DNA from: Parcubacteria group bacterium | GTDB lineage: Bacteria > Patescibacteriota > Minisyncoccia > Phycocordibacterales > 21-14-all-47-15 | NCBI GenBank assembly: GCA_016181845.1 | Contig: JACOYO010000002.1 | Location: 20,780-84,779, forward strand | DNA length: 64,000 bases | Direction of reading: 5' to 3' | Shown: positions 2,536 through 62,024 of the stretch, one piece after another | How positions within the stretch are numbered: position 1 is the first letter of the stretch | Layout: each line of letters begins with the position of its first letter | Program-made: the position numbers and the translations under genes | Notes under the pieces: model-generated | Databases searched by the model: none | What the model saw: the letters and a program-made list of their open reading frames with translations, nothing else | Told to the model about the DNA's origin: nothing

Positions 2536-2670
2536 TTACACCGAAAGCCGCGAGCGGCCCTTTCTTCGGCGGCGCCGTATAACATTTTTTCCTGTTTTAC
2601 TTCGCAAACGAACCAAAAAACCGTGTGTTTTGGCTCGTTTTCTTTTTTTTGGTTGATAAGTGATTGACAT
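2536..2670 (-). CDS. rpmH: 50S ribosomal protein L34 (absent from ORF track, below 60 aa)
   Basis: Manual minus-strand translation: [44 protein letters not shown], 44 aa, canonical L34; divergent from dnaA. Confidence 0.85.
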
Positions 2671-2828
2671 GGTGTTGAAAGTTGAAATTAGAAATCAAAA
2701 AGTATGGATAAAAATCGTTTTGTTTTTTTGCGCCCGCAATTGATGTTATACACATAGTATTAACATACTGTGCACTTTTTAACAAGTTTCTTATTTAACA
2801 ACATCATACTATAATCATCAGTAACCTG
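2671..2828. promoter_or_regulatory. rpmH-dnaA divergent promoter region with DnaA-box-like 9-mers (TTATCCATA, TTATACACA)
   Basis: Intergenic, AT-rich; 8/9 matches to TTATCCACA. Confidence 0.4.
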
Positions 2829-4193
2829 ATGTTACTACACTCATCTTTTATGGGAGACACAAAACAATTGTGGCACGACACATTAAATGAAATAGAGACA
2901 AGTGTGTCAAAAGCAAATTTTAGCACGTGGTTTAAGCATACCCACGTGCTAAAACAAGACGACGGGGTAGTGCACGTTGGTGTCCCGAACCCGTTTGTGA
3001 AGGATTGGCTTCAAAGCAAGTACCATAAGCTTATTTTGAAGTCGCTTCGTGGAATTTGCGATGGGGTTCGCGGTGTTGAATATGTTATCTCAAAAGACTC
3101 TGGTGTTGAAGAACCTGTGGTTATTTCTTTTCCTGAAAAAGAGTTTCTTAACGAGCGTTTCCCGATCGGAGATCTTTCGGTAAACAAAGAAGATAATTTG
3201 AACCCGCGATATACGTTTGATACGTTTGTAATCGGAGCTTTTAACGAGACGGCCTACGCCGCGTCTCAAACCATCATAAAAACACCAGGGTCTGCGTTTA
3301 ATCCGTTTTGTGTGTATGGACCAACAGGGCTTGGGAAGACACACCTTATACAATCAATCGGCAACTACTTAAAAAAAGAGGGTGCGCGTGTTTTCTACAC
3401 AACATCAGAAAAATTTTCTCTTGACTACATTACATCCGTTCAAAACAATAAAATAAATGTTTTTAAGGAAAAATATCGCTCGTACGACGTGTTTATAATG
3501 GATGACATTCAGTTTCTGTCAAACAAAGAACGCACGCAAGAAGAGCTTTTCCATCTTTTTAACGTTTTGTACGACAACAATAAACAAATTATTTTTTCAT
3601 CAGACAAGCACCACAACTATATTCCAGGGCTTGAAGACCGCTTGAAGTCGCGCTTTAACGCCGGAATGAACGCCGACATAAATCCGCCGGAATATGAATC
3701 AAAAATCGCAATTTTGCGTGCAAAACTAAATCAGCATAATTTTATTCCTCAAGAGTCGGTCCTTGAATATATCGCGTCTTCAACAACATCAAACATACGC
3801 GAATTAGAGGGGATATTAAACATTATTGCCTTTCAAACACAATTAAAAAAACACTCACTTTCCATAAACGAAGTTCGCGAAATCATAAAAAACAGCACTC
3901 GTCCAAAAAAAACAAAGACAATAGAAGAGGTAATAAGAATTACTGCCGGTTTTTACAACATTGAAGAAGAAATTATCTACAAAAAGACACGGAGGAGGGA
4001 GGTGGTGCGTCCGCGGCAAATTATTATGTATCTCCTCCGTGAGGATTTTAGCACTTCTTTTCCTCTTATCGGACAAAAACTCGGAGGGAGAGATCATACG
4101 ACCGTCATTCACGCGTATGAAAAGATAAAAGAAGACCTGAAAAAAGACAGCACTTTAAACCACGAGATAACACAGATACGGACCATGATATGA
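2829..4193 (+). CDS. dnaA: chromosomal replication initiator DnaA (alternative start at 2850)
   Basis: GPTGLGKTHL Walker A; C-terminal DNA-binding domain; followed by dnaN. Confidence 0.95.
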   Translation: MLLHSSFMGDTKQLWHDTLNEIETSVSKANFSTWFKHTHVLKQDDGVVHVGVPNPFVKDWLQSKYHKLILKSLRGICDGVRGVEYVISKDSGVEEPVVISFPEKEFLNERFPIGDLSVNKEDNLNPRYTFDTFVIGAFNETAYAASQTIIKTPGSAFNPFCVYGPTGLGKTHLIQSIGNYLKKEGARVFYTTSEKFSLDYITSVQNNKINVFKEKYRSYDVFIMDDIQFLSNKERTQEELFHLFNVLYDNNKQIIFSSDKHHNYIPGLEDRLKSRFNAGMNADINPPEYESKIAILRAKLNQHNFIPQESVLEYIASSTTSNIRELEGILNIIAFQTQLKKHSLSINEVREIIKNSTRPKKTKTIEEVIRITAGFYNIEEEIIYKKTRRREVVRPRQIIMYLLREDFSTSFPLIGQKLGGRDHTTVIHAYEKIKEDLKKDSTLNHEITQIRTMI

Positions 4194-4473
4194 TGAGGTT
4201 TTGTTGTTGATATGTTTGTTGAAAACGAGTTTATAAAAAAGTAATTCCTGTTGAAAAAAATGTGACAAAAAAATATTTTTCTGAAAAACCAAAATAAAAA
4301 ATTTCTTTTCCACAGGAAACGCTTTGGTTGAGAGTAAAAAACCTTTTCTTTTTCGGAATAATAAAAATTATCAACATATCAACAGACATCATATCAATAT
4401 ATAATAATTTCTAACTTATATTCATTTATTATTATTTATTCAAATCGGACAAAAAATATTTTTCAACGCAAAC
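4194..4473. promoter_or_regulatory. candidate oriC: DnaA-box cluster plus AT-rich unwinding tract between dnaA and dnaN
   Basis: TTTTCCACA near 4300; tandem TTATCAACA/ATATCAACA/ATATCAATA at 4363-4395; AT run TATATAATAATTTCTAACTTATATTCATTTATTATTATTTATT. Confidence 0.5.
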
Positions 4474-5574
4474 ATGAAAGCAGAAACAATAATTGAAAAA
4501 ATAAAAATAGCCGCAACGACCGCGGAGAAAATGACCGGAAAAAACCTTTCTTTACCGGCGTTAAAATCAATTCTTCTTATTGCAAAACAAAAATCGGTCA
4601 TTATAAAAGCAACCAATCTTGATATAGGGATTGAATACGAAATCCCAGCAAAAGTTGAAGAAGAGGGGGTTGCCGCCATACCAGGCGCTATTCTTGGCGG
4701 AATGCTTTCCGGATTATCCGGAGAAGAAATCGTTTCCATTGAATCGGTAAACAACAATGTCCTTTTTTCAACAAAAAAGAATTCAACAGTGTTAAAGACA
4801 ACCCCGTACGAAGACTTTCCTCTCATTCCTAAAATTTCCAACGGAGAAAAAATGATTATCTCGGCGGAAAAATTAATATCCGGATTGAGGTCGGTGTGGT
4901 ATAGCGCCGCGCTATCGGACATTAAACCGGAAATAGCGAGTGTATATTTGTATCAAAATGAAAAAAACATCGTTTTTGTTGCAACAGATTCTTTTCGTTT
5001 GGCTGAAAAAAAGATAGAAAACAAAAAAGACACAAACGCTGACGGGGTCATTGTTCCGCTTAAAAATGTTTCAGAAATAATAAGGGTTTTTGGAGAAAGA
5101 AGTGGTGATATTGAGATACTTTTCAACAAAAACCAAATTTCGTTTGAAAACAACGGCGTTTATGTTTTTTCAAGGACAATAGACGGTGTTTTTCCAGATT
5201 ACCAGCAGATTATTCCAAAAGAACACACGACCGAGGCGATTGTTTTGAAAAAAGATTTTCAAAACGCGCTAAAAATAGCAACAATTTTTTCTGAAAAATT
5301 TAATCAGGTTGTTTTTACCATTAAACCAAAAGATTCTTATTTTGAAATAAAATCAAAAAATAGCGCTATCGGCGAAAATACAACAACCATGGATGCATCA
5401 ATTTCAGGTGAAGACATTGTTATGGGTTTTAACGCAAAATATATTTCTGACAGCATGCAATCAATCGCCGAAGACAGCATTCTTCTGCAGTTTAACGGCC
5501 CAAACAAGCCACTGGTGATAAAAGGACTGTCAAACAAAAGTTTTCGTTATTTGGTAATGCCAATGAATCGTTGA
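4474..5574 (+). CDS. dnaN: DNA polymerase III beta sliding clamp
   Basis: 366 aa; position after dnaA; clamp-like three-domain pattern. Confidence 0.9.
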   Translation: MKAETIIEKIKIAATTAEKMTGKNLSLPALKSILLIAKQKSVIIKATNLDIGIEYEIPAKVEEEGVAAIPGAILGGMLSGLSGEEIVSIESVNNNVLFSTKKNSTVLKTTPYEDFPLIPKISNGEKMIISAEKLISGLRSVWYSAALSDIKPEIASVYLYQNEKNIVFVATDSFRLAEKKIENKKDTNADGVIVPLKNVSEIIRVFGERSGDIEILFNKNQISFENNGVYVFSRTIDGVFPDYQQIIPKEHTTEAIVLKKDFQNALKIATIFSEKFNQVVFTIKPKDSYFEIKSKNSAIGENTTTMDASISGEDIVMGFNAKYISDSMQSIAEDSILLQFNGPNKPLVIKGLSNKSFRYLVMPMNR

Positions 5575-26497: not shown

Positions 26498-26513
26498 AAA
26501 ATCGGGTTAATTG

Positions 26514-26586
26514 ATAATAGAGGCGGCAGGGATCTTTCCTTACAGGAACGGTATAGTCTTCGTATCCGCCCTGGGCGGATATACTC
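26514..26586 (-). ncRNA. candidate structured RNA: 9-bp closing stem GCAGGGATC/GATCCCTGC enclosing two hairpins (three-way junction)
   Basis: Stems read by eye; the closing stem duplicates the tRNA-Lys T-arm/acceptor sequence GATCCCTGCCG. Confidence 0.3.
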
Positions 26587-26656
26587 AGACTTTTCGATCC
26601 CTGCACGCGAGCAAAATTGTTTGCTCGCTCGGGCGGATTCTCCGCTTTGCTCCGAA

Positions 26657-26729
26657 TCCGCCCGGCAGGGATCGAACCTGCGACCGTCAGCTTAAAAGGC
26701 TGCTGCTCTACCAACTGAGCTACGGGCGG
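26657..26729 (-). tRNA. tRNA-Lys (anticodon TTT)
   Basis: Manual cloverleaf: acceptor CCGCCCG/CGGGCGG, D-arm GCTCAGTTGGTAGAGC, anticodon loop CTTTTAA, T-arm GCAGGTTCGATCCCTGC, discriminator A. Confidence 0.85.
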
Positions 26730-26965
26730 ATGTAACTTTTATTTTTTGAAGAAACTTAATGTCCCCAGTCTCTCTTTTGATTTCTACCAAAACAGCTACG
26801 GACGGATGTAATTTTTTGTTCAAACGTGCCGTAAAGAAATACAAAAGTTTTTTCAAAAAGTTCTCGGATCTCCTCGCCTTGCTCGGCCAGACTTTTAGAA
26901 AAGACTTTTGTATTTCTCACGGCCTCCTTGCATAACTTCGTAAAATGTAGCATACAATTGATATA

Positions 26966-30765: not shown

Positions 30766-30858
30766 GTAGAGAAGCGTTTGCCCTCGTCGTTCAACTCCGA
30801 CACTTCGGTCGGAGTCCCGACTCCGAGGGTGTCGGGATTATTACAATGAAATAAAATT

Positions 30859-30930
30859 GCCCTCGTCGTTCAATGGATAGGACGCAAGCTTGCGGAGCTT
30901 GTAATAGAAGTTCGATTCTTCTCGAGGGCA
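30859..30930 (+). tRNA. tRNA-Arg (anticodon read as GCG)
   Basis: Manual cloverleaf: acceptor GCCCTCG/CGAGGGC, D-arm GTTC-AATGGATA-GGAC, anticodon stem CAAGC/GCTTG loop TTGCGGA, T-arm AGAAG-TTCGATT-CTTCT, discriminator A. Confidence 0.75.
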
Positions 30931-31167
30931 TAAAAATAATGAGCGCAAAGCGTTTGCTTTGCGCGAATGTATTTTTATAGCCATCAAGAAGAATCGAAAG
31001 GCGGAGGCCGCGAAGCCGAATCCGAAGCGTAGCGCAGGATTCGTGGCCGAGCCGGGGTCGCGAGCCCAAAAATTAAGGAGTGAAACGACTATAATTTTTG
31101 AGGACTTGTGACCGATTCTTCTCGAGGGCATAAAAATAATGAGCGCAAAGCGTTTGCTTTGCGCGAA
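30914..31167 (+). repeat. 200-bp periodic unit: 54-bp direct repeat (tRNA-Arg 3' end + 37-nt trailer) at 30914-30967 and 31114-31167, enclosing a 76-bp GC-rich module (30991-31066) shared with the tRNA-Gly locus
   Basis: Direct sequence comparison; the two 54-mers are identical. Confidence 0.85.
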
Positions 31168-31202
31168 CGCATGTTAGAAACCGATTTGTGGTTTCTTAAA
31201 AC

Positions 31203-33195: not shown

Positions 33196-33669
33196 GTGGC
33201 CGAGAAATATAAAAGAAATCCAAATACCAGCTGTTTTATTTGCAGAAAATCAATTTACAGAAGACCGTTTGAGATAGAAAAAAACAAAGGAAAGATATTT
33301 TGCGGCGCTGTTTGTTATGGCATTTCTTGCAGAAAAGAGAAGCCCTGTATTGTTTGTGGTCAACTCATTTTGTCGGGTTTGCGCAAAAAAACTTGCAGCA
33401 GAAGTTGCTCGAATAAATATAGGATTGGTATTCAATATAAAATAAATAGTCCAAGAGACAAAGCAAAAGCGCAACGTTCTTTAAAACTTAAACTCTTAAA
33501 AGAGAGAGGAAAAAAATGCGAACGTTGCGGTTTCCAAAAATATAATATATTGCAAACACACCACAAAGACAGAGATAGAAACAACAACAATATGAATAAT
33601 CTGGAGATTGTTTGTCCAAACTGTCACGCCGAAGAACATTATTTAGAAAAAAGCCCGCTAAACATTTGA
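33196..33669 (+). CDS. HNH endonuclease with N-terminal Cys-rich zinc-ribbon region
   Basis: CERCG...HHKDRDRNNNNMNNLEIVCPNCH HNH signature; adjacent to tRNA-Ser. Confidence 0.65.
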   Translation: MAEKYKRNPNTSCFICRKSIYRRPFEIEKNKGKIFCGAVCYGISCRKEKPCIVCGQLILSGLRKKTCSRSCSNKYRIGIQYKINSPRDKAKAQRSLKLKLLKERGKKCERCGFQKYNILQTHHKDRDRNNNNMNNLEIVCPNCHAEEHYLEKSPLNI

Positions 33670-33802: not shown

Positions 33803-33868
33803 CTTTGTGGCGGAATATGAGGACATTTAAAATTTCATGGAGGTTTCAAGATGATAAAAATTGAAAAT

Positions 33869-34075
33869 CGGAATCGGAAGCCGAAATGGGGTCGCGCCGT
33901 AGGCGCGACCCCATTTCGGCTTCCGATACACACCGCAGTCGGGATTTTGCAAGAAAGAAAGTTTAACATCGGCATGCGGAGCGCGGCGAGCCCAGCCAGA
34001 GTTCTTCAGCATTCGGCTATGCGATAGCCGAATACACAGCATTCGGCTATGCGATAGCCGAATGTTGGACAGATT
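33869..34075. repeat. structured intergenic block: 24-bp perfect palindrome (CGGAAGCCGAAATGGGGTCGCGCC-GTAG-GGCGCGACCCCATTTCGGCTTCCG) plus two tandem 27-nt hairpin repeats (CATTCGGCTATGCGATAGCCGAAT)
   Basis: Read directly. Confidence 0.7.
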
Positions 34076-50658: not shown

Positions 50659-51105
50659 AAAAATGAAAAAGGAAAAACGAAAAATGCAAAACAACAACTT
50701 AAAAATAAAAACAGACCTAAAAAAAACGAGCCTATATATTTGCCATTGATATTATAAAGATGATTGATTTTATTGATAAAAAAGATTTTACGATACAAGT
50801 TATTTCTAAACAATTAATTAGAAGCGCCACCAGTATTGGATCAAATATCATTGAAGCTCAAGCGGGTAGTACAAAAAAAGACTTTACTAATTTTTTTAGT
50901 TACGCTTTGAAATCTGCGAATGAAAGTAAGTTCTGGCTCGGACTCTTAAGGGATTCTGGTAAAGGAAATAAAGAAAAGTGCAATAAATTACTGCAGGAAA
51001 CGATAGAATTATCAAATATGTTAGGATCAAGTATACTTACTTTGAAAGGGAAAAAGAAATTTTAAATTTTATGTTGTTGTTTTGCATTTTTCATTTTTAA
51101 TTTTA
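50659..51105. mobile_element. family-B inverted repeats (left 50659-50712, right 51063-51105) bracketing a four-helix-bundle gene: candidate small cargo element
   Basis: GAAAAATGCAAAACAACAACTT versus reverse complement of ATGTTGTTGTTTTGCATTTTTC (20/22). Confidence 0.4.
50760..51065 (+). CDS. four-helix-bundle protein (TIGR02436-like; the family encoded in 23S rRNA intervening sequences)
   Basis: QLIRSATSIGSNIIEAQAGSTKKDFTNFFSYALKSANESKFWLGLL matches the family core. Confidence 0.65.
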   Translation: MIDFIDKKDFTIQVISKQLIRSATSIGSNIIEAQAGSTKKDFTNFFSYALKSANESKFWLGLLRDSGKGNKEKCNKLLQETIELSNMLGSSILTLKGKKKF

Positions 51106-51117
51106 CGCTTCTATTTT

Positions 51118-51570
51118 ATGCGTTACGAAGTCCCACAATTTATTGAGGTTGAAGACAAAGTGTTTGGTCCGCTGACCATCAAACAGTTTTTGTATTTGGT
51201 GGGCGGAGCCGGAGTCGCGTATCTCATTTGGGTTTCTCTGCCGACTTTTTTTGCCGTTCTCTTTATCGTTCCAGTTGCGGCATTGGCTTTATCGCTTGCT
51301 TTTTATCAGGTGAACAATCGTCCGTTTGTGCAGATTATTGAAAACAGCGTGCAATATTTTTTCAGCAACAAACTCTACCTCTGGAAAAAAGAACCGAAAA
51401 AAAACGCGCGCGAAACGGCGGCGGACATATCAAAAAATGAACCCTCATATATCCCGAAACTGTCAGAAAGCAAACTAAAAGATATCGCCTGGGGGCTTGA
51501 CGTACATGAAAGTTTGTATGCCGGCACGGACACGGAAAAGAGAAAAAAAGAAAAAGTGTTTAGAACATGA
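51118..51570 (+). CDS. PrgI-like conjugation/T4SS membrane protein
   Basis: MRYEVPQFIEVEDKVFGPLTIKQFLYL N-terminus plus two TM helices. Confidence 0.5.
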   Translation: MRYEVPQFIEVEDKVFGPLTIKQFLYLVGGAGVAYLIWVSLPTFFAVLFIVPVAALALSLAFYQVNNRPFVQIIENSVQYFFSNKLYLWKKEPKKNARETAADISKNEPSYIPKLSESKLKDIAWGLDVHESLYAGTDTEKRKKEKVFRT

Positions 51571-51585
51571 AACCTAAAATAATTT

Positions 51586-51672
51586 TGAATTTCCAATTTT
51601 GAATTTTGAATAAATTTTGAATGTCTTAATTTAAAATTAGAATTTGATTCAAAATTCAAAATTGGAAATTCA
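51586..51672. repeat. AT-rich ~27-bp-arm inverted repeat (TTGAATTTCCAATTTTGAATTTTGAA ... TTCAAAATTCAAAATTGGAAATTCAA)
   Basis: Read directly, between PrgI-like and VirB4 N-terminal genes. Confidence 0.7.
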
Positions 51673-51681
51673 AAACTCAAC

Positions 51682-52326
51682 ATGACTAAAGAAACCACCC
51701 AACAATTTGTTCCAATCAAAGAAGTGCGCGACGGCGTCGTGGTGCTTCGCGACGGCTCGCTCCGCACCGTGCTTATGGCATCGTCGCTCAACTTCGCGCT
51801 GAAATCGGCGGATGAACAGGAGGCGATTACTTCTCAATTTCAAAATTTTCTAAACTCGCTTGAATTTTCCGTTGAATTCTACATCCAATCTCGGCGGCTT
51901 GACATCAGGCCGTATATCGCGCTTCTGGAAGAGCGGATGAAAGAACAGACGAATGATTTGGTAAAAATCCAGACTCACGAATATATCGGTTTCATAAAAA
52001 ATTTTACCGAATCAACCGACATAATGAGCAAAAATTTTTTTATCATCATTCCGTATGCGGCGTCTATTTTCCAGGACAAAAAGAAGATGGGAGGATTTTT
52101 CGGAAAGAAAGCTCCGGCGGAAGTTGAAAAGAAAAATGAAGCGGAACAATTTGAAGAAAGCCGCACCCAGCTTGAACAGCGCTCGGCGATTGTCTCACAA
52201 GGACTTTCCCGCGCAGGGGTCAGGGTGGCGATGCTCGGGACCGAAGAAATTATAGAATTGTTTTACAAAATATTTAACCCGGGGGAGCTTGAGAAACCGA
52301 TTGTTTCAGATGACGGTATGCAATAA
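51682..52326 (+). CDS. VirB4/TrsE-family N-terminal domain protein
   Basis: QFVPIKEVRDGVVVLRDGSLRTVLMASSLNFALKSADEQEAI resembles conjugative ATPase N-termini; same frame as the next ORF, separated by TAATAA. Confidence 0.55.
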   Translation: MTKETTQQFVPIKEVRDGVVVLRDGSLRTVLMASSLNFALKSADEQEAITSQFQNFLNSLEFSVEFYIQSRRLDIRPYIALLEERMKEQTNDLVKIQTHEYIGFIKNFTESTDIMSKNFFIIIPYAASIFQDKKKMGGFFGKKAPAEVEKKNEAEQFEESRTQLEQRSAIVSQGLSRAGVRVAMLGTEEIIELFYKIFNPGELEKPIVSDDGMQ

Positions 52327-52335
52327 TAAAATATC

Positions 52336-54150
52336 ATGGCATTATTTGATTTTCTAAAAAAGAAAAAAACAGAAGAAGCGATTACGCCGATTTTGCCGCA
52401 GGAAATTTATGAAGCGGCAACGCTTGAATTGAAAGATATTCTGGCGCCGTCGGCGCTCAAGATTTCTCCGCGCGAAATAAATCTCGGAGAAAAAATAGCC
52501 CGCACTTTTTTTGTCATTTCATATCCGCGGTTTCTTACGGACAATTGGTTTTCTCCGATTATCAATCTTGACAAAGTATTTGATGTCGCTATTTACGTGC
52601 ACGCGATTGAAACGCAAAAAGTGCTCCGTCAATTCCAAAAAAAGGTCGCGGAAGTGGAAAGTCAGATAAATATCCGCGAGGAAAAAGGGCTTGTCCGCGA
52701 CCCGGAACTTGACGCGGCGTACCGAAATCTTGAAGCGCTCCGAGATAAACTCCAGCAGGCGGAGGAAAAATTGTTTGATGTCGGACTCTACATCACTATT
52801 TACGGCTCTACGAGCGAAGAGTTGGATAAAGTGGAGTCAACCATCAAATCCATTCTTGAATCAAAATTGGTTTTTTTGAAACCGGCGCTCTTCCAGCAGG
52901 AGGCGGGGTTCATGAGCGTCTTGCCGCTTGGCGACGACCGGCTCCTTGTGCATTCAAAACTCAATTCTTCACCTCTAGCGAGTATGTTTCCATTCGTGTC
53001 GTTTGACCTGACATCTGATAAAGGAATTTTGTACGGCATCAACCGTCACAATTCTTCCCTTATTTTGTTTGACCGCTTCTCGCTTGAAAACTATAACTCG
53101 GTTATTTTTGCGAAAGCCGGTTCCGGCAAGTCGTACGCGACGAAGCTTGAAATTTTGCGGTCGCTTATGTTTGATACCGATGTTATCGTGATTGACCCCG
53201 AACGTGAATATGAATATCTGGCGGAAGCGATGGGCGGACGGTATTTTAATATCTCGCTTTCATCAGAGCATCACATCAATCCGTTTGACCTCCCCGTTCC
53301 ACGTGAAGACGAAGCGCCTTCCGATGTGCTCCGTTCACATATCATCAATTTAGTCGGACTCTTCCGCCTCATGCTGGGCGGACTTACCCCCGAGGAAGAT
53401 TCAATCGTTGACCGCGCCATTACCGAAACATACGCGCTAAAAGATATTACGCCAGCGACGAATTTCGGCAATGTCATGCCTCCGCTTTTGTCTGATTTTG
53501 AATTGGTCCTTGCCGGTATGGAAGGCGCCGAATCGCTCGTGTCGCGCCTGTCAAAATATACCAAAGGTACGTGGGCCGGTTTTATCAATCGTCCGACCAA
53601 TGTTGATATCAATAAAAAATTCGTCGTGTTTTCCGTGCGCGATATGGAAGACGACCTGAAGCCGGTCGCAATGTATATTATCACGCACTATATCTGGAAT
53701 GCTGTCCGCAAAACGCTCCGCAAGCGGCTCTTGGTGATTGATGAAGCGTGGTGGATGATGAAAGCCGAAGACACCGCGTCGTTTTTGTTCGGCATCGCGA
53801 AACGTTCGCGCAAATACTATCTCGGGCTCGCGACCATTACCCAGGACGTCGGCGATTTTTTGAAATCTCCGTATGGTTTGCCCATCATTACCAACTCGTC
53901 TCTTCAGCTTTTGCTCAAGCAGTCGCCAGCGATTATTGACGAGGTGCAAAAAACTTTTAACCTGACCGAGGAAGAAAAATTTTTGCTTCTTGAATCCGAT
54001 GTCGGCGAGGGAATCTTTTTTGCCGGATTGAAACACGTGGCGATTAAAATCATCGCTTCATACACCGAAGACCAGATTATTACTTCCGACCCGGCGCAAC
54101 TCTTGGCCATCAAACGCGCCAAAGAAGAGCTGAAACAAGCGGAAACATAA
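52336..54150 (+). CDS. VirB4/TraC/CagE-family type IV secretion ATPase
   Basis: Walker A AKAGSGKSYATK, Walker B LLVIDEAWWMM, VIVIDPEREY. Confidence 0.8.
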   Translation: MALFDFLKKKKTEEAITPILPQEIYEAATLELKDILAPSALKISPREINLGEKIARTFFVISYPRFLTDNWFSPIINLDKVFDVAIYVHAIETQKVLRQFQKKVAEVESQINIREEKGLVRDPELDAAYRNLEALRDKLQQAEEKLFDVGLYITIYGSTSEELDKVESTIKSILESKLVFLKPALFQQEAGFMSVLPLGDDRLLVHSKLNSSPLASMFPFVSFDLTSDKGILYGINRHNSSLILFDRFSLENYNSVIFAKAGSGKSYATKLEILRSLMFDTDVIVIDPEREYEYLAEAMGGRYFNISLSSEHHINPFDLPVPREDEAPSDVLRSHIINLVGLFRLMLGGLTPEEDSIVDRAITETYALKDITPATNFGNVMPPLLSDFELVLAGMEGAESLVSRLSKYTKGTWAGFINRPTNVDINKKFVVFSVRDMEDDLKPVAMYIITHYIWNAVRKTLRKRLLVIDEAWWMMKAEDTASFLFGIAKRSRKYYLGLATITQDVGDFLKSPYGLPIITNSSLQLLLKQSPAIIDEVQKTFNLTEEEKFLLLESDVGEGIFFAGLKHVAIKIIASYTEDQIITSDPAQLLAIKRAKEELKQAET

Positions 54151-54154
54151 ATCT

Positions 54155-54634
54155 ATGGCAACAAACACACCACCCACTGTCGGCAATGAAATTGTTCAAA
54201 GGGCTCCTTCTCCCGCGCGTTTTCTTCGCGCTCGCGCTCGGGCGCGGCAAAAAGCTGTGTCCGATGAAAGCGATGAAGAAAAAAAAGCGCAAGCCGCCGG
54301 ACAATCACAAAAATTAACCGGCGCCGGATTCACTATTATGATACTTCTTGCGCTTGTCAAAGATTTTTTTGACATTATCGCCAGCGCGAGCGTTGTGTTG
54401 GCATTTCTCTCAACTATTGCCGGAGTGTCGGTTGCGTTTATTATTTTTCTATATCTTTTTTTCAACAACGTTTCATTTACCGCGCGGAAACTTACCGTTT
54501 TGCTCGCGATGTTTCTTATAGAAAGCGTCCCATTCTTAGCGCTATTGCCGACGACGACAATCAGTTTGCTTATCGTGCGCTATTTGGAACACAACGCCGC
54601 CGTCAAGCGAATCGGGGAACGTTTTGCCGCATAA
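54155..54634 (+). CDS. three-TM membrane protein, T4SS-associated by context
   Basis: Hydrophobicity pattern; position after VirB4. Confidence 0.45.
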   Translation: MATNTPPTVGNEIVQRAPSPARFLRARARARQKAVSDESDEEKKAQAAGQSQKLTGAGFTIMILLALVKDFFDIIASASVVLAFLSTIAGVSVAFIIFLYLFFNNVSFTARKLTVLLAMFLIESVPFLALLPTTTISLLIVRYLEHNAAVKRIGERFAA

Positions 54635-54660
54635 AACGGCGTTATGGTTGGCGTATTGTA

Positions 54661-54805
54661 CCTTGAATTACGAAACTCTTTTTTTGACACCGCTCGGCCG
54701 CTTCCAGCGGCGGCCTAGCTTGTCCTCGGGCTCGGATTTTGCTTCGCAAAAACCAAGCTCCTCGCCCTGCGGCCGTATCAAAAAAAGAGTTTCGTAATTC
54801 ATAAT
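54661..54805. repeat. family-C palindrome arms (GAATTACGAAACTCT / AGAGTTTCGTAATTC) enclosing a 110-bp GC-rich insert (54676-54785)
   Basis: Arms match 14876/27445; insert GC visibly far above surrounding sequence. Confidence 0.7.
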
Positions 54806-54848
54806 ATGGTAATTCAAAATATGATATACTATTGAATAATACGATGAC

Positions 54849-55886
54849 ATGCCTCACAAATTAAATACAATCTTTTTTCTGTTGTGCTCCGCTGTTTTTT
54901 TGGCGATGCCCGCGCTTGGCTTCGCCGCTCTTTTGCCGAACGGAGAGCCGCTCTTAATTATTGCGAATCCGGAAAATCCAAAACCATTTGACACGGTGAC
55001 CGCACGCGTTGAAAGTTTTCGGTTTGATGTCTCCAGAAGCGTGATTACATGGTATGTAAACGGAAAAAAGACGGCTTCAGGAATTGGGAAAACACAAATA
55101 TCATTTTCAGCTGGAGGCGGAGGCAAAGAAACAACCGTTGAAGTCGTGGCTCAATCGGAAACCTCCGGCGTGTTCAACCAGACGCTTGTGTTTCGCCCCG
55201 CGGACGTCGCTCTTTTATGGGAGGCAGATACCTATACTCCTCCTTTTTATCAAGGGAAAGCGCTCGCGTCGTCCGCGGCAAGAATCAAAATTACCGCTTT
55301 TCCGGAATTTACAGATAGCTCGGGCCGCGCCGTTTCTCCGCGCAATCTTGTGTACCAATGGCAGGTTGACGGCTCAAATCTGCCGAATCAATCGGGCTAC
55401 GGAGCGCGAACAATCACCGTGACCGGCGCTCGGATTTATAGAGATACCGAAATATCCGTTGAAGTGTCTTCCGTTGACAGAAGTATCGTTGCTCAAAAAA
55501 TATTGATTATCCCCTCAACCGACCCGAAACTCGTACTGTATGAAAATCATCCGCTGGAAGGAGTGAAATACTCGCAAGCGCTTTCTTCTTCATTTTCGCT
55601 TTCGGAACCCGAGGTGAGCATACGCGCGGAGCCGTACTTTTTTTCAGATATTGGTACTCTTGATTACGGATGGTTTCTCAACAACGAGCCGGTCACGGTG
55701 GACCGGAATGAATGGAATAATATAACTCTGCGCCAAGAAAGCGGCTCTGCCGGCGTGTCGCGTGTCAGCCTTGATGTGCGCGGAATAAGCGGCATACGCG
55801 GGCGTATATTGCAAAACGCGGCGGCGGCGCTCCTTATTTATTTCGGTGGACAAGGAGCGGGCGCTGGAGGATTTTTTGGGCAATAG
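54849..55886 (+). CDS. secreted hypothetical protein
   Basis: Signal peptide; ORF track. Confidence 0.5.
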   Translation: MPHKLNTIFFLLCSAVFLAMPALGFAALLPNGEPLLIIANPENPKPFDTVTARVESFRFDVSRSVITWYVNGKKTASGIGKTQISFSAGGGGKETTVEVVAQSETSGVFNQTLVFRPADVALLWEADTYTPPFYQGKALASSAARIKITAFPEFTDSSGRAVSPRNLVYQWQVDGSNLPNQSGYGARTITVTGARIYRDTEISVEVSSVDRSIVAQKILIIPSTDPKLVLYENHPLEGVKYSQALSSSFSLSEPEVSIRAEPYFFSDIGTLDYGWFLNNEPVTVDRNEWNNITLRQESGSAGVSRVSLDVRGISGIRGRILQNAAAALLIYFGGQGAGAGGFFGQ

Positions 55887-55908
55887 CAGTACATAAAAAA
55901 ATATAAAA

Positions 55909-56766
55909 ATGAAAGCATTAAAATCAATAGCATTTATGGCGCTGATATTTCTCTTCTTTTTTACGCTTGCAATTCCGTTTATTAGTGTTGCCGACTCCGT
56001 AGGTTATATCCTTCAGCCGTTGCCTGGTTTTGACGAAAAAGCGGGTGGCTTGGGCGGATATTTTACAAGTATGTACCAATGGATAATCGGTATTGCAGGA
56101 GTCTTGGCGGTGCTTATGATTGTTGTTGCCGGCATAGAATATATGACCCCGACACCGTCTTCAAAAGAATCGGCAAAAAATCGCGCGTGGGCGGCTATTT
56201 CCGGATTACTTTTGGCGCTCGTATCATATCTTATTTTGAATACGATAAACCCCGATTTGGTGAAACAAAGTATTACGTTACCAAATGTGTCTATCCAAAA
56301 AGCGCCTGAAAATACCAATGAGCTTTTTTCAGCTCGGCAACTATTTCAAGCGCGGCTCAATCAAGAACAAACCTTCAAAGCGGCGATAAAAGATTATGCC
56401 GATTACTCCGCTTCGTTACAGGAACAACAAGATGAATTGTTAACACAGTGGCAGGAAGCGCCGGCAAATTCTGAATTAAGAAAAGTTATAGAACAAAACA
56501 TACGCAATCTTGACGCGCAGATAATTCAAAACAATAATGCACAGAACACGCTTGAGCAATTAAAAGCGGTCGCTACTCAAAATCGGATTGCTGAAGCAAA
56601 ACTTCTTACCGAAAAAGTGATTAGCGCTTCAAACAAAGAAGAAGATAAACAAATTGAAAAAAAGTGCAATGACGAAATCAATTCAAATTGGCTTACGAAA
56701 GGTAGTATTATTTATTACAATTTTTGTTTAGTCAAAAATGCTCACGGTTTCTTTAAGGTTTACTAA
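55909..56766 (+). CDS. VirB2/TrbC-like pilin candidate with C-terminal coiled-coil extension
   Basis: Signal peptide followed by two hydrophobic segments (pilin-like topology); context. Confidence 0.4.
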   Translation: MKALKSIAFMALIFLFFFTLAIPFISVADSVGYILQPLPGFDEKAGGLGGYFTSMYQWIIGIAGVLAVLMIVVAGIEYMTPTPSSKESAKNRAWAAISGLLLALVSYLILNTINPDLVKQSITLPNVSIQKAPENTNELFSARQLFQARLNQEQTFKAAIKDYADYSASLQEQQDELLTQWQEAPANSELRKVIEQNIRNLDAQIIQNNNAQNTLEQLKAVATQNRIAEAKLLTEKVISASNKEEDKQIEKKCNDEINSNWLTKGSIIYYNFCLVKNAHGFFKVY

Positions 56767-56772
56767 CCATAT

Positions 56773-58002
56773 ATGTCCAAAAAAACACTCACCATTCTCA
56801 TTGTTGTCGCGACCGTTGTAATCATCGGGCTTTTTGTTGCGGCATTTTTATTGTCGCGCGGGAAGAGCGTCGTGCCTGGTGAAGGCGGCGAAGGATTCTT
56901 TGGCGATTTTTTCCCGACCGAAGGCGGCGGAGGGCAGGCGCCCGGGGCAGGCACTGGTATTGGCACCACAAGCAAGCAAGGCATATCTGGAAAAGAAGCA
57001 TCAGCGCTACTTCCAGCTCTGCGGCAAATTACCACCGCGCCTATTGCCGGAGCGGTAGCATTTTCGCGTAATGGTAAAACATACATTCGGTATATTGAAA
57101 AAAGGACCGGCAATGTATATGAGGCAGATACCGCGTCGTATGGAAACAATCGCATCACCAATACGACCATACCGGGTGTTGCAGAAGCGTTTTGGAACCA
57201 TGACGGTTCGCAAATGGTGATTCGCTATATTGACAAAGACACGGGCGCGATAAAAAATTTTGGAGCAAAAATAAATGAATTAAAAAACACGCTTGAAGGC
57301 GCTTTTCTTCCCGACAGCATACGCGAAATTGCGGTATCTCCCGACGCAGATAAAATATTCTATACCTTGCCTTTCCAGACTGATACGGCTGGAGCTTCAG
57401 CAAACTTTGACGGCACAAAAACGCTCAATATATTTAACTCTCCGTTTTCCGAATGGCGCGTTTCATGGCCTCTGTCAAAAACAATCGCGCTTGCTACAAA
57501 ATCGTCTTTTGCCGCATCAGGGTACCTCTATTTTTTGAACACGCAGACCGAAGCGCTTAATAGCGTCTTGAGCGGCGTCCGCGGGCTCCTCGCGCTCCCA
57601 AGCCCAGATGGGAAATATGTCTTATACAGTGAAAGCACGGAAGACGGGTTTATACTCAATTTGTTTACCCGCGGGAATAAAGCAGTAACCGAGTTGCCAA
57701 CGAGCACCTTGCCGGAAAAGTGCGTATGGGCAAAAGATAGCATTACACTCTACTGCGCGGCGCCGCTTATCATCCCTATGGGAAAATATCCCGATGCTTG
57801 GTATCAGGGAATAGTATCTTTTTCTGATGATATTTGGAAAATAAATACTGAAACCGGTTTTATTGATTTGGTAATGCAGTTGGAAGATGAAGCCCGCGTG
57901 CCGATTGACGCACTGAATCCCGCTTTGAGTCCCGATGAAGATTATCTTATATTCATCAACAAAAAAGACTCCTCGTTGTGGAGCCTTAGATTAGCTTTTT
58001 AG
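56773..58002 (+). CDS. membrane-anchored TolB-like beta-propeller (PD40 repeats) protein
   Basis: N-terminal TM helix; SPDGKYVLYSE, SPDEDYLIFIN repeats. Confidence 0.55.
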   Translation: MSKKTLTILIVVATVVIIGLFVAAFLLSRGKSVVPGEGGEGFFGDFFPTEGGGGQAPGAGTGIGTTSKQGISGKEASALLPALRQITTAPIAGAVAFSRNGKTYIRYIEKRTGNVYEADTASYGNNRITNTTIPGVAEAFWNHDGSQMVIRYIDKDTGAIKNFGAKINELKNTLEGAFLPDSIREIAVSPDADKIFYTLPFQTDTAGASANFDGTKTLNIFNSPFSEWRVSWPLSKTIALATKSSFAASGYLYFLNTQTEALNSVLSGVRGLLALPSPDGKYVLYSESTEDGFILNLFTRGNKAVTELPTSTLPEKCVWAKDSITLYCAAPLIIPMGKYPDAWYQGIVSFSDDIWKINTETGFIDLVMQLEDEARVPIDALNPALSPDEDYLIFINKKDSSLWSLRLAF

Positions 58003-59771: not shown

Positions 59772-59874
59772 GGCAAGAGTCATTTTTCTCTGCTACCATA
59801 TTATTTAGTTGCGCGGGCCATAGTTTAGTCAAAATTGAACCTCGCTCTATAGTTTGCTATAATAATATAGCGCT

Positions 59875-60540
59875 ATGACGAAAATTCTTATTAAAAAAGA
59901 AGCCATTGAACTTCGCAGTCAGGGATATTCGTATAAGTATATAGCCCAAAAACTCCGCGTTTCTAAAAGCACATTGAGCAGCTGGCTTTCCTGTGTCTCG
60001 TATGTGCCAAATGAAGAAACTATGCAGAGAATAGAACAAGCCAGAGAAAAATCAGGTAAAGCAAAAAATCGGCAAAAGGTTGAATCAATAACAAAAGCGC
60101 AAGAAATGGCAAAAAAAGACATAGGCAGACTTACGCGACGGGATTTGTTTATGTTGGGGGTCGGCCTGTACATAGGAGAAGGCAGTAAAACAATGAATTT
60201 AGTCAGAATAATTAATGCAAATCCAAAAGTGATATCCTTTGCTATCAGATGGTTTAAGGAGATATGCGGCTTGAATAACGAACATTTTTCTATTAGGATT
60301 CATTTGTACCCTGATAACAATGTTGAAGATTGTCTGCGTTTTTGGTCGAGGTCTTCCGGGCTTCCACGAAAACAATTTCAGAAGACACAAATTGATTTGA
60401 GGACAAATAAAAAAATATCTAAAAGAGGAAAACTTCCTTATGGAACAGCGCACATAACAATAAAAAGCAGAGGAAGAAAAGAGTTCGGAGTATTTCTAGC
60501 CAGGAAGATCCATTTTTGGATGGAAGAAGTGGTGAAATAA
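59875..60540 (+). CDS. HTH + LAGLIDADG-like homing-endonuclease-domain protein, immediately upstream of tRNA-Gly
   Basis: N-terminal resolvase/Hin-like HTH (GYSYKYIAQKLRVSKSTLSSWL); LFMLGVGLYIGEGS resembles a LAGLIDADG motif. Confidence 0.4.
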   Translation: MTKILIKKEAIELRSQGYSYKYIAQKLRVSKSTLSSWLSCVSYVPNEETMQRIEQAREKSGKAKNRQKVESITKAQEMAKKDIGRLTRRDLFMLGVGLYIGEGSKTMNLVRIINANPKVISFAIRWFKEICGLNNEHFSIRIHLYPDNNVEDCLRFWSRSSGLPRKQFQKTQIDLRTNKKISKRGKLPYGTAHITIKSRGRKEFGVFLARKIHFWMEEVVK

Positions 60541-60546
60541 AAACTT

Positions 60547-60617
60547 GCGGGATTAGTTTAATGGTAGAACATCAGTTTTCCAAACTGATGGCAGGAGTTC
60601 GATTCTCCTATCCCGCA
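60547..60617 (+). tRNA. tRNA-Gly (anticodon TCC)
   Basis: Acceptor GCGGGAT/ATCCCGC, D-arm GTTT-AATGGTA-GAAC, anticodon stem TCAGT/ACTGA loop TTTCCAA, T-arm AGGAG-TTCGATT-CTCCT, discriminator A. Confidence 0.8.
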
Positions 60618-60875
60618 TAAAAATAAGGAGCACAAAGCGAAGCTTTGGGCGACTATATTTTTTATAGCGGGTATGGAGAATCGAAAGGCGGAGGCCGCGA
60701 AGCCGAATCCGAAGCGAAGCATAGGATTCGTGGCCGAGCCAGGGTCGTGAGCGCATATTTATAAAGAACGTAGCGATTATATAAATAGCGACTCCTGACC
60801 GATTCTCCTATCCCGCATAAAAATAAGGAGCACGAAGCGAAGCTTTGGACGACTATATTTTTTATAGCGGGTATG
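60601..60875 (+). repeat. 200-bp periodic unit: 75-bp direct repeat (tRNA-Gly 3' end + 58-nt trailer including the alr ATG) at 60601-60675 and 60801-60875, enclosing the shared 76-bp GC-rich module (60678-60753)
   Basis: Direct comparison; 2 mismatches between repeats; module 70/76 identical to the tRNA-Arg locus. Confidence 0.85.
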
Positions 60876-62024
60876 AAAAAAAAATCTATTGATACCAAGG
60901 GTCTACGCACGTGGATTGAAATTGACACGAAAGCGCTGAAACATAATTTCAGTATTTTTCGCAATAAAATTGAGCCGAAGGTGCAATTGATGGCCATAGC
61001 AAAGTCAAACGCTTACGGTCATGGGCTGGTGCCGTACGCAAAGACGATGGAGCGTTTTGGCGCTGACTGGCTCGGTGTTGATTCAATCAAAGAAGCGCTT
61101 CGGTTGAGAAAAGATGGAATAAAATGCCCGATTTTGGTGCTTGGTTATACGCTTCCTGAAAATATCTCGCTTGGCGCTCGTTACGCGATTGACCTCACAG
61201 TTTCCACAAAAGAAGGGCTTTCATATTGCGCCAAACTTCCTTCGAGCGACAAACAAAAACTCCGTATCCATTTGAAAATTGATACCGGAATGGGACGGCA
61301 GGGTTTTTTTGCGGAAGACATGGCGGCAGTCGCGCGGTTTCTCAAAAAGAATTTTTCAAAAAACACTATTGCTGGCGTGTATACGCATTTTGCCACGGCA
61401 AAAAATCCGAGTTTCCCGAAAGAGACGCTTGAGCAGATAGGGCGTTTCAAAAAAGCAGTCGCCATACTGCATAATGCCGGCTTCACGCCAATTCGTCACG
61501 CGTGCGCCACGTCCGGCACTATCCTTTTCCCTTCGGCGCATTTTGATATGGTTCGTATCGGCATTGGCTTATTTGGTCTTTGGCCAGCAAAAGAAGTGCA
61601 AGCCGCGTATGAAAAGCGTATCTCTTTGAAACCGGCGCTTTCGTGGAAGACCATTATCAGTGAAGTAAAGACGTTTCCTAATGGGAGCGGTATCGGATAT
61701 GACCTCACCGAAAGATTGCCGGCAGGTTCTCGCATTGCCGTTTGTCCTATCGGATATTGGCACGGCTACCCGCGCGCGCTTTCAAGCATAGGCAGAGGGC
61801 TGATACGCGGAAAAATCGCAAAAATAACAGGCCGTGTTTCCATGGATATGATAGCAATTGATGTAACAAAGATTGCCAACGCGCGGGTAGGGGACGAGGT
61901 CGTTTTGATTGGTTGTGATAAAAACGCCTGTATAACTGCCGACGAGCTGGCGTTTCTTGCCGATACCACCAATTATGAAATAGTTACGCGGATTAACCCG
62001 CTTATCAAAAGAATATATTTATAG
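60873..62024 (+). CDS. alr: alanine racemase
   Basis: AIAKSNAYGHG PLP-lysine motif. Confidence 0.85.
   Translation: MKKKSIDTKGLRTWIEIDTKALKHNFSIFRNKIEPKVQLMAIAKSNAYGHGLVPYAKTMERFGADWLGVDSIKEALRLRKDGIKCPILVLGYTLPENISLGARYAIDLTVSTKEGLSYCAKLPSSDKQKLRIHLKIDTGMGRQGFFAEDMAAVARFLKKNFSKNTIAGVYTHFATAKNPSFPKETLEQIGRFKKAVAILHNAGFTPIRHACATSGTILFPSAHFDMVRIGIGLFGLWPAKEVQAAYEKRISLKPALSWKTIISEVKTFPNGSGIGYDLTERLPAGSRIAVCPIGYWHGYPRALSSIGRGLIRGKIAKITGRVSMDMIAIDVTKIANARVGDEVVLIGCDKNACITADELAFLADTTNYEIVTRINPLIKRIYL

Follow-up and report, generated by a model that had tools for sequence, protein, structure and literature searches.

Structured insertions tailored to host tRNA ends: a candidate family of non-autonomous elements in Parcubacteria

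The tRNA-Arg locus

We analysed 64,000 nucleotides of a Parcubacteria group bacterium genome (contig JACOYO010000002.1, assembly GCA_016181845.1; this 64-kb stretch is called the window). Directly 3′ of its tRNA-Arg(GCG) gene lies a 200-bp unit that appears to be a structured insertion flanked by copies of the tRNA's own end. The tRNA is on the plus strand, at 30858-30931 according to ARAGORN and 30859-30930 according to Rfam (61 bits). The intact gene, taken as 30859-30931, encodes no CCA and is 100% identical to the tRNA of two relatives, L027 and L056 (L-numbers such as L024 and L056 are labels of comparison sequences).

A direct repeat frames the unit. The 55 nt at 30913-30967 recur exactly at 31113-31167, a start-to-start distance of 200, and the match extends to 63 nt at 95% identity. 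Copy 1 runs on the plus strand from T-loop residue C56 through the tRNA 3′ end and an A-rich trailer into a GC hairpin. Copy 2, also on the plus strand, opens with a displaced fragment of the tRNA 3′ end (31113-31131), continues with the native trailer hairpin and runs into ancestral downstream sequence, colinear with the downstream flank of L056.

Between the repeats lie a linker, an inverted copy of the tRNA end and a foreign module, all read on the plus strand. The linker (30932-30979) consists of an A-tract, the hairpin GCGCAAAGC-GTTT-GCTTTGCGC (30943-30964) and a T-tract. It resembles an intrinsic terminator, scores positive on both strands in a terminator scan and forms the centre of an 88-nt imperfect palindrome. 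Right after the trailer hairpin, at 30973-30998, comes an inverted, imperfect copy of the tRNA-Arg 3′ end covering the T-loop, the T-stem 3′ strand and the acceptor 3′ strand. Inverted-repeat searches and folds place its core at 30980-30998, reading GCCATCA (acceptor), AGAAG (T-stem) and AATCGAA (T-loop complement), where it supplies the 5′ strand of a closing helix that we call P1; residues 31113-31131 of direct repeat copy 2 supply the 3′ strand. The 32-nt inverted-repeat arms match in 28 of 34 aligned columns. The inverted copy is able to pair with either the tRNA itself or the downstream direct copy. The module (30996-31112) is GC-rich and comprises a GAAA junction and two arms. Arm 1 (31000-31053) folds as GGC/GCC, then GGCCGCGA/TCGTGGCC, then a variable hairpin; arm 2 (31056-31112) has a GGTC../..GACC base and an AT-rich hairpin.

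The tRNA 5′ end is duplicated as well. Seventeen nucleotides at 30778-30794 recur exactly at 30857-30873, 79 nt downstream. The upstream copy is a displaced, plus-strand fragment of the tRNA (positions -2 to 15) joined to ancestral upstream sequence: it is colinear with the upstream flanks of L056 and L027 and is reproduced in Logan contigs L001-L003. A 62-nt insert on the 5′ side (30795-30856, plus strand) separates it from the gene; this insert is absent from L027 and L056 and present in a single copy among the sequences compared. By sequence reading it carries two GC-rich hairpins on the plus strand (30795-30814 and 30815-30837) and, after both, an AT-rich stretch, TACAAT...AAATAAAATT, that forms a new leader. 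Within the second hairpin's loop lies CGAGGG, which is complementary to the acceptor 5′ strand and could pair with the displaced 5′ acceptor strand, a logic akin to that of the 3′ side.

An earlier note on this DNA, made from the letters alone, had reported both duplications. The 200-bp unit and the 5′ copy followed by two hairpins are real, and both repeats are slightly longer than it gave (55 rather than 54 nt, and 17 rather than 15 nt). It had overlooked the inverted tRNA-end copy.

Two details of the locus stand apart. The anticodon GCG is kept in all sampled relatives (L027-L030, L055-L057); bacteria usually have ACG, read as inosine, in this arginine tRNA. Downstream of the second repeat, the window has about 19 nt more than L056 at 31181-31199 (CCGATTTGTGGTTTCTTAA); together with the preceding AGAAACC this stretch forms a hairpin behind a convergent 162-aa gene, and it includes ACCGATT, the word found at the junction of module and T-loop.

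Further copies in the window

The same plan recurs 30 kb away behind tRNA-Gly(UCC) (60546-60618, plus strand; ARAGORN and Rfam). The second element (60619-60799, plus strand) has a linker hairpin, an inverted copy of its own tRNA end (GCGGGTATGGAGAATCGAA, 60667-60685) and a module (60682-60799), and scores 161 bits against R1, a covariance model of the element described below. A second direct copy follows at 60800-60880 on the plus strand. It belongs to an 81-nt repeat (60600-60680 and 60800-60880) listed at 95% identity, with 79 of 81 positions identical, and its spacing is exactly 200, as at tRNA-Arg.

The two modules are nearly the same sequence on different arms. Positions 30991-31066 and 60678-60753 agree at 70 of 76 positions (92%), which bears out the near-identity that the earlier note had pointed to, and a 32-nt core of the module occurs exactly twice in the window, against no match in 100 shuffles. 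Yet the arms differ, each deriving from its own tRNA. The linker hairpin is about 85% similar between the loci.

The Gly repeat reaches into a gene. Its register takes in the start codon (60873) and a few nucleotides of alr, identified as alanine racemase, so that the second repeat copy supplies the alr ATG (60860-60880; ..GCGGGTATG|AAAAAAAAATC). Either the Gly junction arose at a microhomology around the ATG, or the element now gives alr its 5′ end.

An analogous arrangement lies behind tRNA-Lys(UUU) (26656-26730, minus strand). Sequence comparison delimits there, at 26520-26636 on the minus strand, an element that we call type B, elements of the Arg and Gly kind being type A. It comprises the acceptor 5′ strand CCGCCCG, a hairpin, GCAGG plus GATCGAA, a module unlike that of type A and a degenerate tRNA 3′-end copy; a conserved hairpin, ..CCUGUAAGG.., marks the region (26500-26830). 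By the same comparison a degenerate partial 5′ copy of tRNA-Lys lies about 80 nt upstream of the gene (26783-26810, minus strand). Neither the shared plan at tRNA-Gly, with its 81-nt repeat, nor the tRNA-Lys arrangement had been recognised in the earlier note.

Independent short-read assemblies of the same population break at these loci. Logan contigs L001-L003 and L051 (SRR12113383/384/430) all end inside tRNA-Arg or tRNA-Gly, and L051 reaches only a little way into the stretch that is repeated; these repeats break short-read assemblies.

Empty sites in relatives

Two relatives retain the locus without the additions. L027 and L056 keep the gene order RuvA, S20, tRNA-Arg; the L027 flanks are about 73% identical in nucleotide sequence, and L056 shares the downstream gene, with 83% identity in the S20 protein. 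Around a tRNA-Arg that is unchanged in sequence, both lack the 5′ and the 3′ additions, so that the insert-free locus which the earlier note had proposed to look for was found twice. In the alignment, the upstream partial copy in the window joins the ancestral upstream flank and the second 3′ copy joins the ancestral downstream flank. One of these loci came from an indirect source: a protein search with a spurious 96-aa antisense ORF (open reading frame) returned three matches, all to the antisense tRNA-Arg part and none to a module, and these matches led to L027.

The empty site also reveals the origin of the repeat. In L056 the native tRNA-Arg trailer, TAAAAATAACGCGCGCAAAG..CTTTACGCGCGTATATTT, is an A-tract, a GC hairpin and a T-tract between convergent genes, and its hairpin is homologous to the trailer hairpin of the window. 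This host terminator makes up 37 of the 55 nt of the Arg repeat, and the two copies are identical at 55 of 55 positions. Because the repeat contains a terminator that is native in L056, it reads as a local duplication, and a recent one, rather than as an attachment (att) core carried in by an element. At an empty Arg site the expected order would be tRNA, hairpin and then CGCATGTTAG. Relative to it, the 200 inserted bases comprise a T-rich stretch with the inverted tRNA-end copy, about 112 nt of foreign module, and a re-copied host segment running from C56 to the end of the hairpin. On this sequence comparison, we conclude that the Arg unit is an insertion.

A simple target duplication from a staggered cut was rejected for the window: next to the insertion point, copy 1 and L056 have a 7-nt T-tract that is missing from copy 2. 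The tRNA-linked elements are sporadic, missing from most tRNAs in related contigs.

Occurrence in other metagenomes

Related modules are found behind further tRNAs in other groundwater metagenomes. We scanned metagenomes with a 20-mer from the module and obtained three true loci, L023 being the same sequence as L026 and L024 coming from Hainich groundwater. At the scan loci the module starts 61 nt past the tRNA (tRNA-Met and tRNA-Gly(CCC)) on the tRNA strand. L026 holds a longer variant behind an initiator-like tRNA-Met and a diverged one behind a tRNA with a group-I-like intron, followed in tandem by a type-B element like that at tRNA-Lys. Type-B relatives occur at L026 3844-3981 and at L044 3280-3405, the latter behind tRNA-Gly(UCC). 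The sample holds five distinct type-A and three type-B copies, and the earlier suggestion of a family of small elements linked to tRNA 3′ ends holds, with modules at several different tRNAs.

The order of parts is constant: in every case tRNA, an A-rich trailer with hairpin, an inverted local tRNA end finishing in the T-loop complement, the module, and a direct copy of the local tRNA end. All nine type-A and type-B copies lie on the tRNA strand. In the four type-A copies of L024 and L026 the direct copy is about 20 nt long, from C56 to 1-2 nt past the discriminator (about N75). The palindrome from T54 to the T-loop complement measures 87-88 nt in all five standard type-A copies, its inverted arm remains a complement past the discriminator and on into the trailer, matching in 26-28 of 33-35 aligned columns, and copies A1-A3 share an unpaired A beside the acceptor complement. 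What is common to all loci is the module of about 110 nt (AAAGGCGGAGGCCGCGAAGC...GGCCGAGCC...GAC) and the terminator-like linker, and these alone.

The module is conserved and, in the sequence collected, confined to tRNAs. Across three genomes and five tRNAs it keeps a 26-nt core and a covarying fold, and modules are more alike within one genome than between genomes. Covariance model R1, built from four copies, matches only tRNA-linked sites in 138 kb of collected sequence. Elsewhere the searches were negative. A 20-mer found only chance matches, in GC-rich genomes, among contigs of GTDB representative genomes, and BLAST of the flanks turned up no module there; two patterns scanned against IMG/VR matched only GC-rich phage coding regions, by chance; and BLAST of the 200-bp unit against phage and plasmid collections gave no match. 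Literature searches found no description of such tRNA-tailored elements.

A conserved fold on the tRNA-sense strand

Every type-A copy, folded singly, adopts the same three-way junction. The closing helix P1, on the tRNA-sense strand, has 16-17 bp made up of acceptor, T-stem and 5 nt of T-loop. After P1 come the GAAA junction, arm 1 (GGC/GCC, an asymmetric internal loop, GGCCGCGA/UCGUGGCC and a variable hairpin) and then arm 2, whose base is GGUC/GACC and whose AT-rich hairpin is likewise variable.

Sequence changes preserve this fold. The variable hairpins covary (GAAUCC/GGAUUC, GAUUCUU/AAGAAUC, CAAUC/GAUUG), and the diverged copy carries compensatory changes: the middle G-C of a three-pair helix becomes C-G, and GGCC/GGCC becomes GCGC/GCGC. 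Because MAFFT placed the divergent A5 copy wrongly, covariation was counted in an alignment of the five distinct sequences fitted to the model. There, pairing holds in 95.5% of cells, and double-sided changes occur at 18 of 36 pairs, of which 11 lie within the module. None of 500 shuffles reached this level of covariation, and slid controls pair at 29-47%. Conserved G-U pairs, together with a sense strand whose stability exceeds that of the antisense strand by 3-13 kcal/mol in every type-A copy, point to a structure of the tRNA-sense strand, most simply an RNA. The acceptor portion of P1 is decaying rather than conserved.

The putative RNA has no recognised relative. Searches of Rfam 15, whose families include tmRNA, tRNA-like RNAs, group I and II introns, small ribozymes and HEARO, gave nothing over the module at E<=10 at the Arg or the Gly locus, where only the tRNAs match, and ARAGORN called no tmRNA (transfer-messenger RNA) at these loci. 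In all six frames no reading frame is conserved among four copies, each being interrupted or shifted.

Three candidate identities were rejected. A small protein gene does not fit frames that are not conserved among the copies, and a group I intron, ribozyme or tmRNA lacks a match in Rfam or ARAGORN. A retroelement-like primer-binding site for a mature tRNA was dismissed because the inverted arm complements the genomic trailer and not CCA.

Proposed origin and mechanism

We favour, with about even confidence, an undescribed family of non-autonomous, structured insertions that sit just 3′ of tRNA genes in some Parcubacteria and have flanks templated from the host tRNA. Its descriptive part, a recent, non-autonomous family of structured insertions tailored to tRNA ends, is likely; a specific mobility mechanism by template switching is tentative. 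As a result of how the flanks are arranged, an intact tRNA is retained upstream. The inverted arm lies between conserved sequences yet is tailored to each tRNA, and it is complementary into the trailer rather than to CCA, which argues that the local gene was its template, during insertion or later.

The simplest scheme we can infer that yields the Arg locus base by base has four steps. It would start with a nick or break in the conserved T-loop of the tRNA gene, repaired by template-switching synthesis. Synthesis would first run through the tRNA and its terminator. The nascent end would then snap back on the palindrome of A-tract, hairpin and T-tract and copy the tRNA end backwards up to its loop, which would produce ...TTTTTAT[A]GCCATCAAGAAGAATCGAA. 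A switch to a module donor would follow at AATCGAA, the T-loop complement, and the module would be copied to ...GAC-CGATT. Finally the nascent end would return to the T-loop of the original template, and the 3′ end and hairpin would be re-copied. The T-loop microhomologies AATCGAA and CGATT would serve for the switching, and the resulting duplication would span 20 nt in most copies and extend through the terminator in this window.

Breaks of the required kind have a phage precedent. The target of SegB, a free-standing homing endonuclease, in phage tRNA genes is RAWTSGAAC, which is complementary to GTTCSAWTY of the T-loop; cleavage there drives tandem amplification (PMC13096335). By analogy, SegB may serve as a precedent for T-loop breaks here, and endonuclease-like genes do lie beside tRNAs in the window. 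Fold-back template switching is likewise known from quasipalindromes, which resemble the imperfect 87-88-nt palindrome here in resting on a pre-existing hairpin and having one arm that was seemingly copied. Fold-back switching is familiar as a source of mutations and not as a way to spread a mobile module, whereas here it would be coupled to the capture of foreign sequence at a defined tRNA position.

The fold suggests what the unit may produce. The 12-bp acceptor/T-stem stack is the feature recognised by RNase P, RNase Z and the CCA-adding enzyme. Since P1 reproduces this stack, a processed RNA of about 150 nt from the unit is plausible: the unit would be co-transcribed with the tRNA, and P1, as a mimic of a tRNA minihelix, would probably lead these enzymes to excise a stable RNA of that size. 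Pairing with the inverted arm would also sequester, and so neutralise, the displaced tRNA fragment.

It is possible, if doubtful, that these parts combine in a self-tailoring element. A module of about 110 nt would enter T-loop breaks, build a tRNA-mimicking closing helix from the host tRNA by inverted and direct templated copies, and be excised as a tRNA-capped RNA, moving by template switching or hairpin capping with no transposase or integrase site of its own. With the closing helix built from the host tRNA, each copy would automatically match its tRNA.

Several observations weigh against the favoured origin by templated insertion. It takes several template switches, and a T-loop nuclease here is putative. 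The direct repeat of about 20 nt is constant in the four independent copies of L024 and L026, like a defined staggered cut or a recombination core. The linker, similar at Arg and Gly (about 85%) and in L024, may travel with the element, at odds with a purely native terminator. The inverted arm is never a perfect complement, having 2-3 mismatches and a conserved bulged A, and the L024 arm retains the G of a G-U pair, contrary to what copying from DNA would give. Few copies of the family were sampled, the alignment behind the covariation count was fitted to the model, and P1 covaries automatically, since its two strands come from one and the same tRNA. The RNA product is predicted, from sequence and fold.

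If the favoured reading is true, non-coding DNA spreads by target-templated duplication at a universally conserved motif of RNA genes. A conserved RNA, possibly one exploiting tRNA processing, would then join the sparse non-coding repertoire of Patescibacteria (Candidate Phyla Radiation). The reading would also account for the recurrent partial tRNA copies and contig breaks at the tRNA loci of such metagenome-assembled genomes. Partial tRNA copies can mislead tRNA annotation and island-finding tools.

Known systems and alternative explanations

The element fails defining features of each of the closest known systems, and we regard it as a variant of tRNA-targeting mobile DNA. Transfer RNA genes are classic landing sites of mobile DNA, whose known occupants are kilobase islands with integrases. 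Like islands and prophages that integrate into tRNA genes through tyrosine integrases (P4-like elements), the element inserts at a tRNA 3′ half, leaves the tRNA intact, duplicates a segment from T-loop to discriminator (about 20 nt) and can stand in tandem. In keeping with that class, its repeat is a tRNA 3′ segment starting at C56. Unlike those islands it measures 200 bp rather than kilobases and has no integrase in it or near it: there is no conserved ORF in the 200 bp, and Pfam found no integrase among about 50 ORFs of the 64 kb. It has an extra, inverted core; its core changes with each tRNA while the cargo stays constant, so that no constant att core is present, the arms differing between Arg and Gly; and its repeat enters the host terminator.

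A miniature integrative element bounded by attL and attR, as the earlier note had interpreted the repeats, is rather unlikely. A tyrosine integrase acting in trans would recombine a small circle (tRNA 3′ core, linker, inverted core, module) with the T-loop. The T-loop is a classical sublocation of tRNA-integrating islands such as P4, and the direct repeat, which in four independent copies covers about 20 nt between the T-loop and a point 1-2 nt beyond the discriminator, has the expected extent; its constancy in other genomes keeps this explanation alive. The order of tRNA core, linker, inverted core, module and tRNA core is the product expected of a crossover within the core of a circle. Tandem elements at one tRNA fit as well, and the window copies, at 1.3-1.4 units of exactly 200 bp, would be compatible with an intermediate that is circular or multimeric. 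The imperfect hairpin with its conserved bulged base would also suit this reading, in which the inverted copy may allow a single strand to fold into a duplex core, as in integron attC sites or the attP of CTX phage. Integron attC sites share the imperfect palindrome, 87-88 nt here, and an extrahelical base, the unpaired A of copies A1-A3; unlike them, the arms here end in GTTCGAT and ATCGAAA.

Several features tell against integration. The window repeats hold a native terminator (37 nt of the Arg repeat) and at Arg are identical at 55 of 55 positions, marking them as products of local duplication. The Arg and Gly modules are 92% identical yet sit on different cores, and a fixed core moved to another tRNA would leave a chimeric, dead tRNA. 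An inverted copy of the local tRNA end is not predicted. By inspection the R''/R' consensus of attC (RYYYAAC ... GTTRRRY) is absent. A double-stranded circle of 200 bp is very small for recombination, and no integrase or recombinase was found in about 50 ORFs of the window. The attL/attR interpretation is therefore not supported.

An old RNA gene that benefits the host is unlikely. On this account a trailer RNA gene would be inherited vertically and often lost between its direct repeats, gene conversion homogenising module and linker while the arms co-evolve with the tRNA. The conserved fold, compensatory changes, sense-strand bias and constant geometry suit it, as do the strict co-orientation directly behind the tRNA, the greater similarity of modules within a genome than between genomes, and direct repeats that would permit precise loss. 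Against it, the element is missing at tRNA-Arg of the two closest available relatives and at most tRNAs sampled in related genomes; repeat identities of 55/55 and 79/81 mark a very recent duplication; the acceptor part of the closing helix is decaying; and the first gain at each tRNA would still need a mechanism. The earlier note had offered an unrecognised trailer RNA as the alternative to mobile elements. The RNA itself remains plausible, given a conserved three-way junction with compensatory changes (the fold and covariation that the note had suggested inspecting), the sense-strand bias and the lack of an Rfam match.

Known RNAs with tRNA-like ends offer a partial parallel. In tmRNA, MALAT1/mascRNA-type RNAs and tRNA-linked small RNAs, as would be the case here, an acceptor/T-stem minihelix closes an RNA that is in principle a substrate of RNase P, RNase Z and the CCA-adding enzyme, and that is co-transcribed with a tRNA. 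In the element, unlike in those RNAs, the T-loop is replaced by its complement and a 110-nt insertion, the helix copies the neighbouring tRNA, and processing is predicted.

It is improbable that the repeats are by-products of homing endonucleases. Under this reading, tRNA-linked LAGLIDADG or HNH proteins would cut tRNA genes time after time and so create local tandem and inverted duplications, with the module as functionless filler. Such genes lie directly upstream of tRNA-Gly (59875-60540) and tRNA-Ser (33196-33669) and beside element-bearing tRNAs in L026, and partial duplications occur at both ends of tRNA-Arg and tRNA-Lys. SegB offers the precedent of T-loop cleavage with tandem amplification; SegB-type endonucleases of the tRNA clusters of T-even phages share with the element T-loop breaks, which are proposed here, tandem duplication at short homologies and endonuclease genes beside tRNAs (PMC13096335). 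In contrast to that system, the duplicated unit here is a foreign module plus an inverted target copy rather than tRNA plus endonuclease gene, the host is a bacterium, and the endonuclease link is putative. Filler would not be conserved, whereas the module keeps its 26-nt core and covarying fold; most tRNA-Gly(UCC) genes with a LAGLIDADG neighbour carry no element; and cleavage of tRNA genes by these proteins is putative.

Miniature transposable elements resemble the unit in form. MITEs (miniature inverted-repeat transposable elements), REP/BIME, Correia and RPE sequences are likewise short, non-coding, intergenic, co-transcribed and non-autonomous, with ends in inverted repeat that fold into a long hairpin. 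The module is flanked by inverted repeats of 16-24 nt; unlike those of MITEs, they are host tRNA sequence, copying the local tRNA end and differing between sites. Target duplications measure 20, 55 and 81 nt instead of a fixed 2-10 bp. Where MITEs have dispersed copies and an autonomous insertion sequence, here the copies are site-specific, occurring only behind tRNAs and in one orientation in the 138 kb, and no matching transposase was found in the window.

An assembly artefact or chance repeat is barely credible. In its favour, the DNA belongs to a metagenome-assembled genome, and since the Logan contigs end within these tRNA loci, the 3′ duplication is spanned by no second assembly. Against it, the 5′ duplication recurs in three independent Logan assemblies, independent JGI and ENA metagenome assemblies show the same architecture at other tRNAs (tRNA-Met, tRNA-Gly(CCC) and the intron-containing tRNA), the two window loci share it, and both a 55-nt exact repeat and a 32-nt core with no match in 100 shuffles are beyond chance.

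Neighbouring genes and other observations

Pfam hits among the window ORFs are housekeeping functions (dnaA/dnaN, pol I, Ruv, Mur) and a cluster resembling a type IV secretion system (T4SS), and Pfam found no integrase, recombinase, transposase or reverse transcriptase in about 50 ORFs. The dnaA-dnaN segment, a probable replication origin region, lies at 2829-5574. The T4SS-like cluster spans 51082-58002, with a PrgI-like protein, a TraG/VirB4-like ATPase and a T4SS pilin.

Encoded CCA ends vary among the tRNAs that we saw. Neither tRNA-Arg nor any other element-bearing tRNA encodes CCA; several element-free tRNAs in L026 and L052 do.

A putative endonuclease gene adjoins tRNA-Gly(UCC). The plus-strand ORF at 59875-60540 encodes 221 aa with an N-terminal helix-turn-helix (HTH) and a LAGLIDADG-type motif, LGVGLYIGEGS, and ends 6 nt before the tRNA. 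More than 1000 homologues of its protein occur in Patescibacteria. We read four other distinct contexts; in each, the homologue ends 6-33 nt upstream of a tRNA-Gly(UCC), while the other neighbours differ. The HTH-LAGLIDADG protein may be either a homing endonuclease targeting tRNA-Gly or a domesticated partner of that tRNA. Upstream of the gene, 59812-59840 (GCGGGCCATAGTTTAGTCAAAATTGAAC) resembles a degenerate tRNA-Gly 5′ end (GCGGGATTAGTTTAATGGTAGAAC), as if the LAGLIDADG-like gene had been inserted along with a duplication of the tRNA 5′ part.

L026 has a comparable neighbourhood. A LAGLIDADG gene with two motifs (2662-3345) overlaps the 5′ end of a tRNA (anticodon region GTA). That tRNA (3338-3635) is split by a sequence of about 205 nt that scores 43 bits against Rfam Intron_gpI (gathering score 50), and ARAGORN does not call it.

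The region around tRNA-Ser(UGA) is rich in hairpins. An HNH-like ORF (33196-33669; weak Pfam match) ends 50 nt before the tRNA, whose leader pairs with its trailer (CCGCCACA/TGTGGCGG). Downstream (33804-34070) lie a near-perfect 55-nt GC-rich hairpin at 33873-33927 and two tandem hairpins (CATTCGGCTATGCGATAGCCGAAT, 34007-34067).

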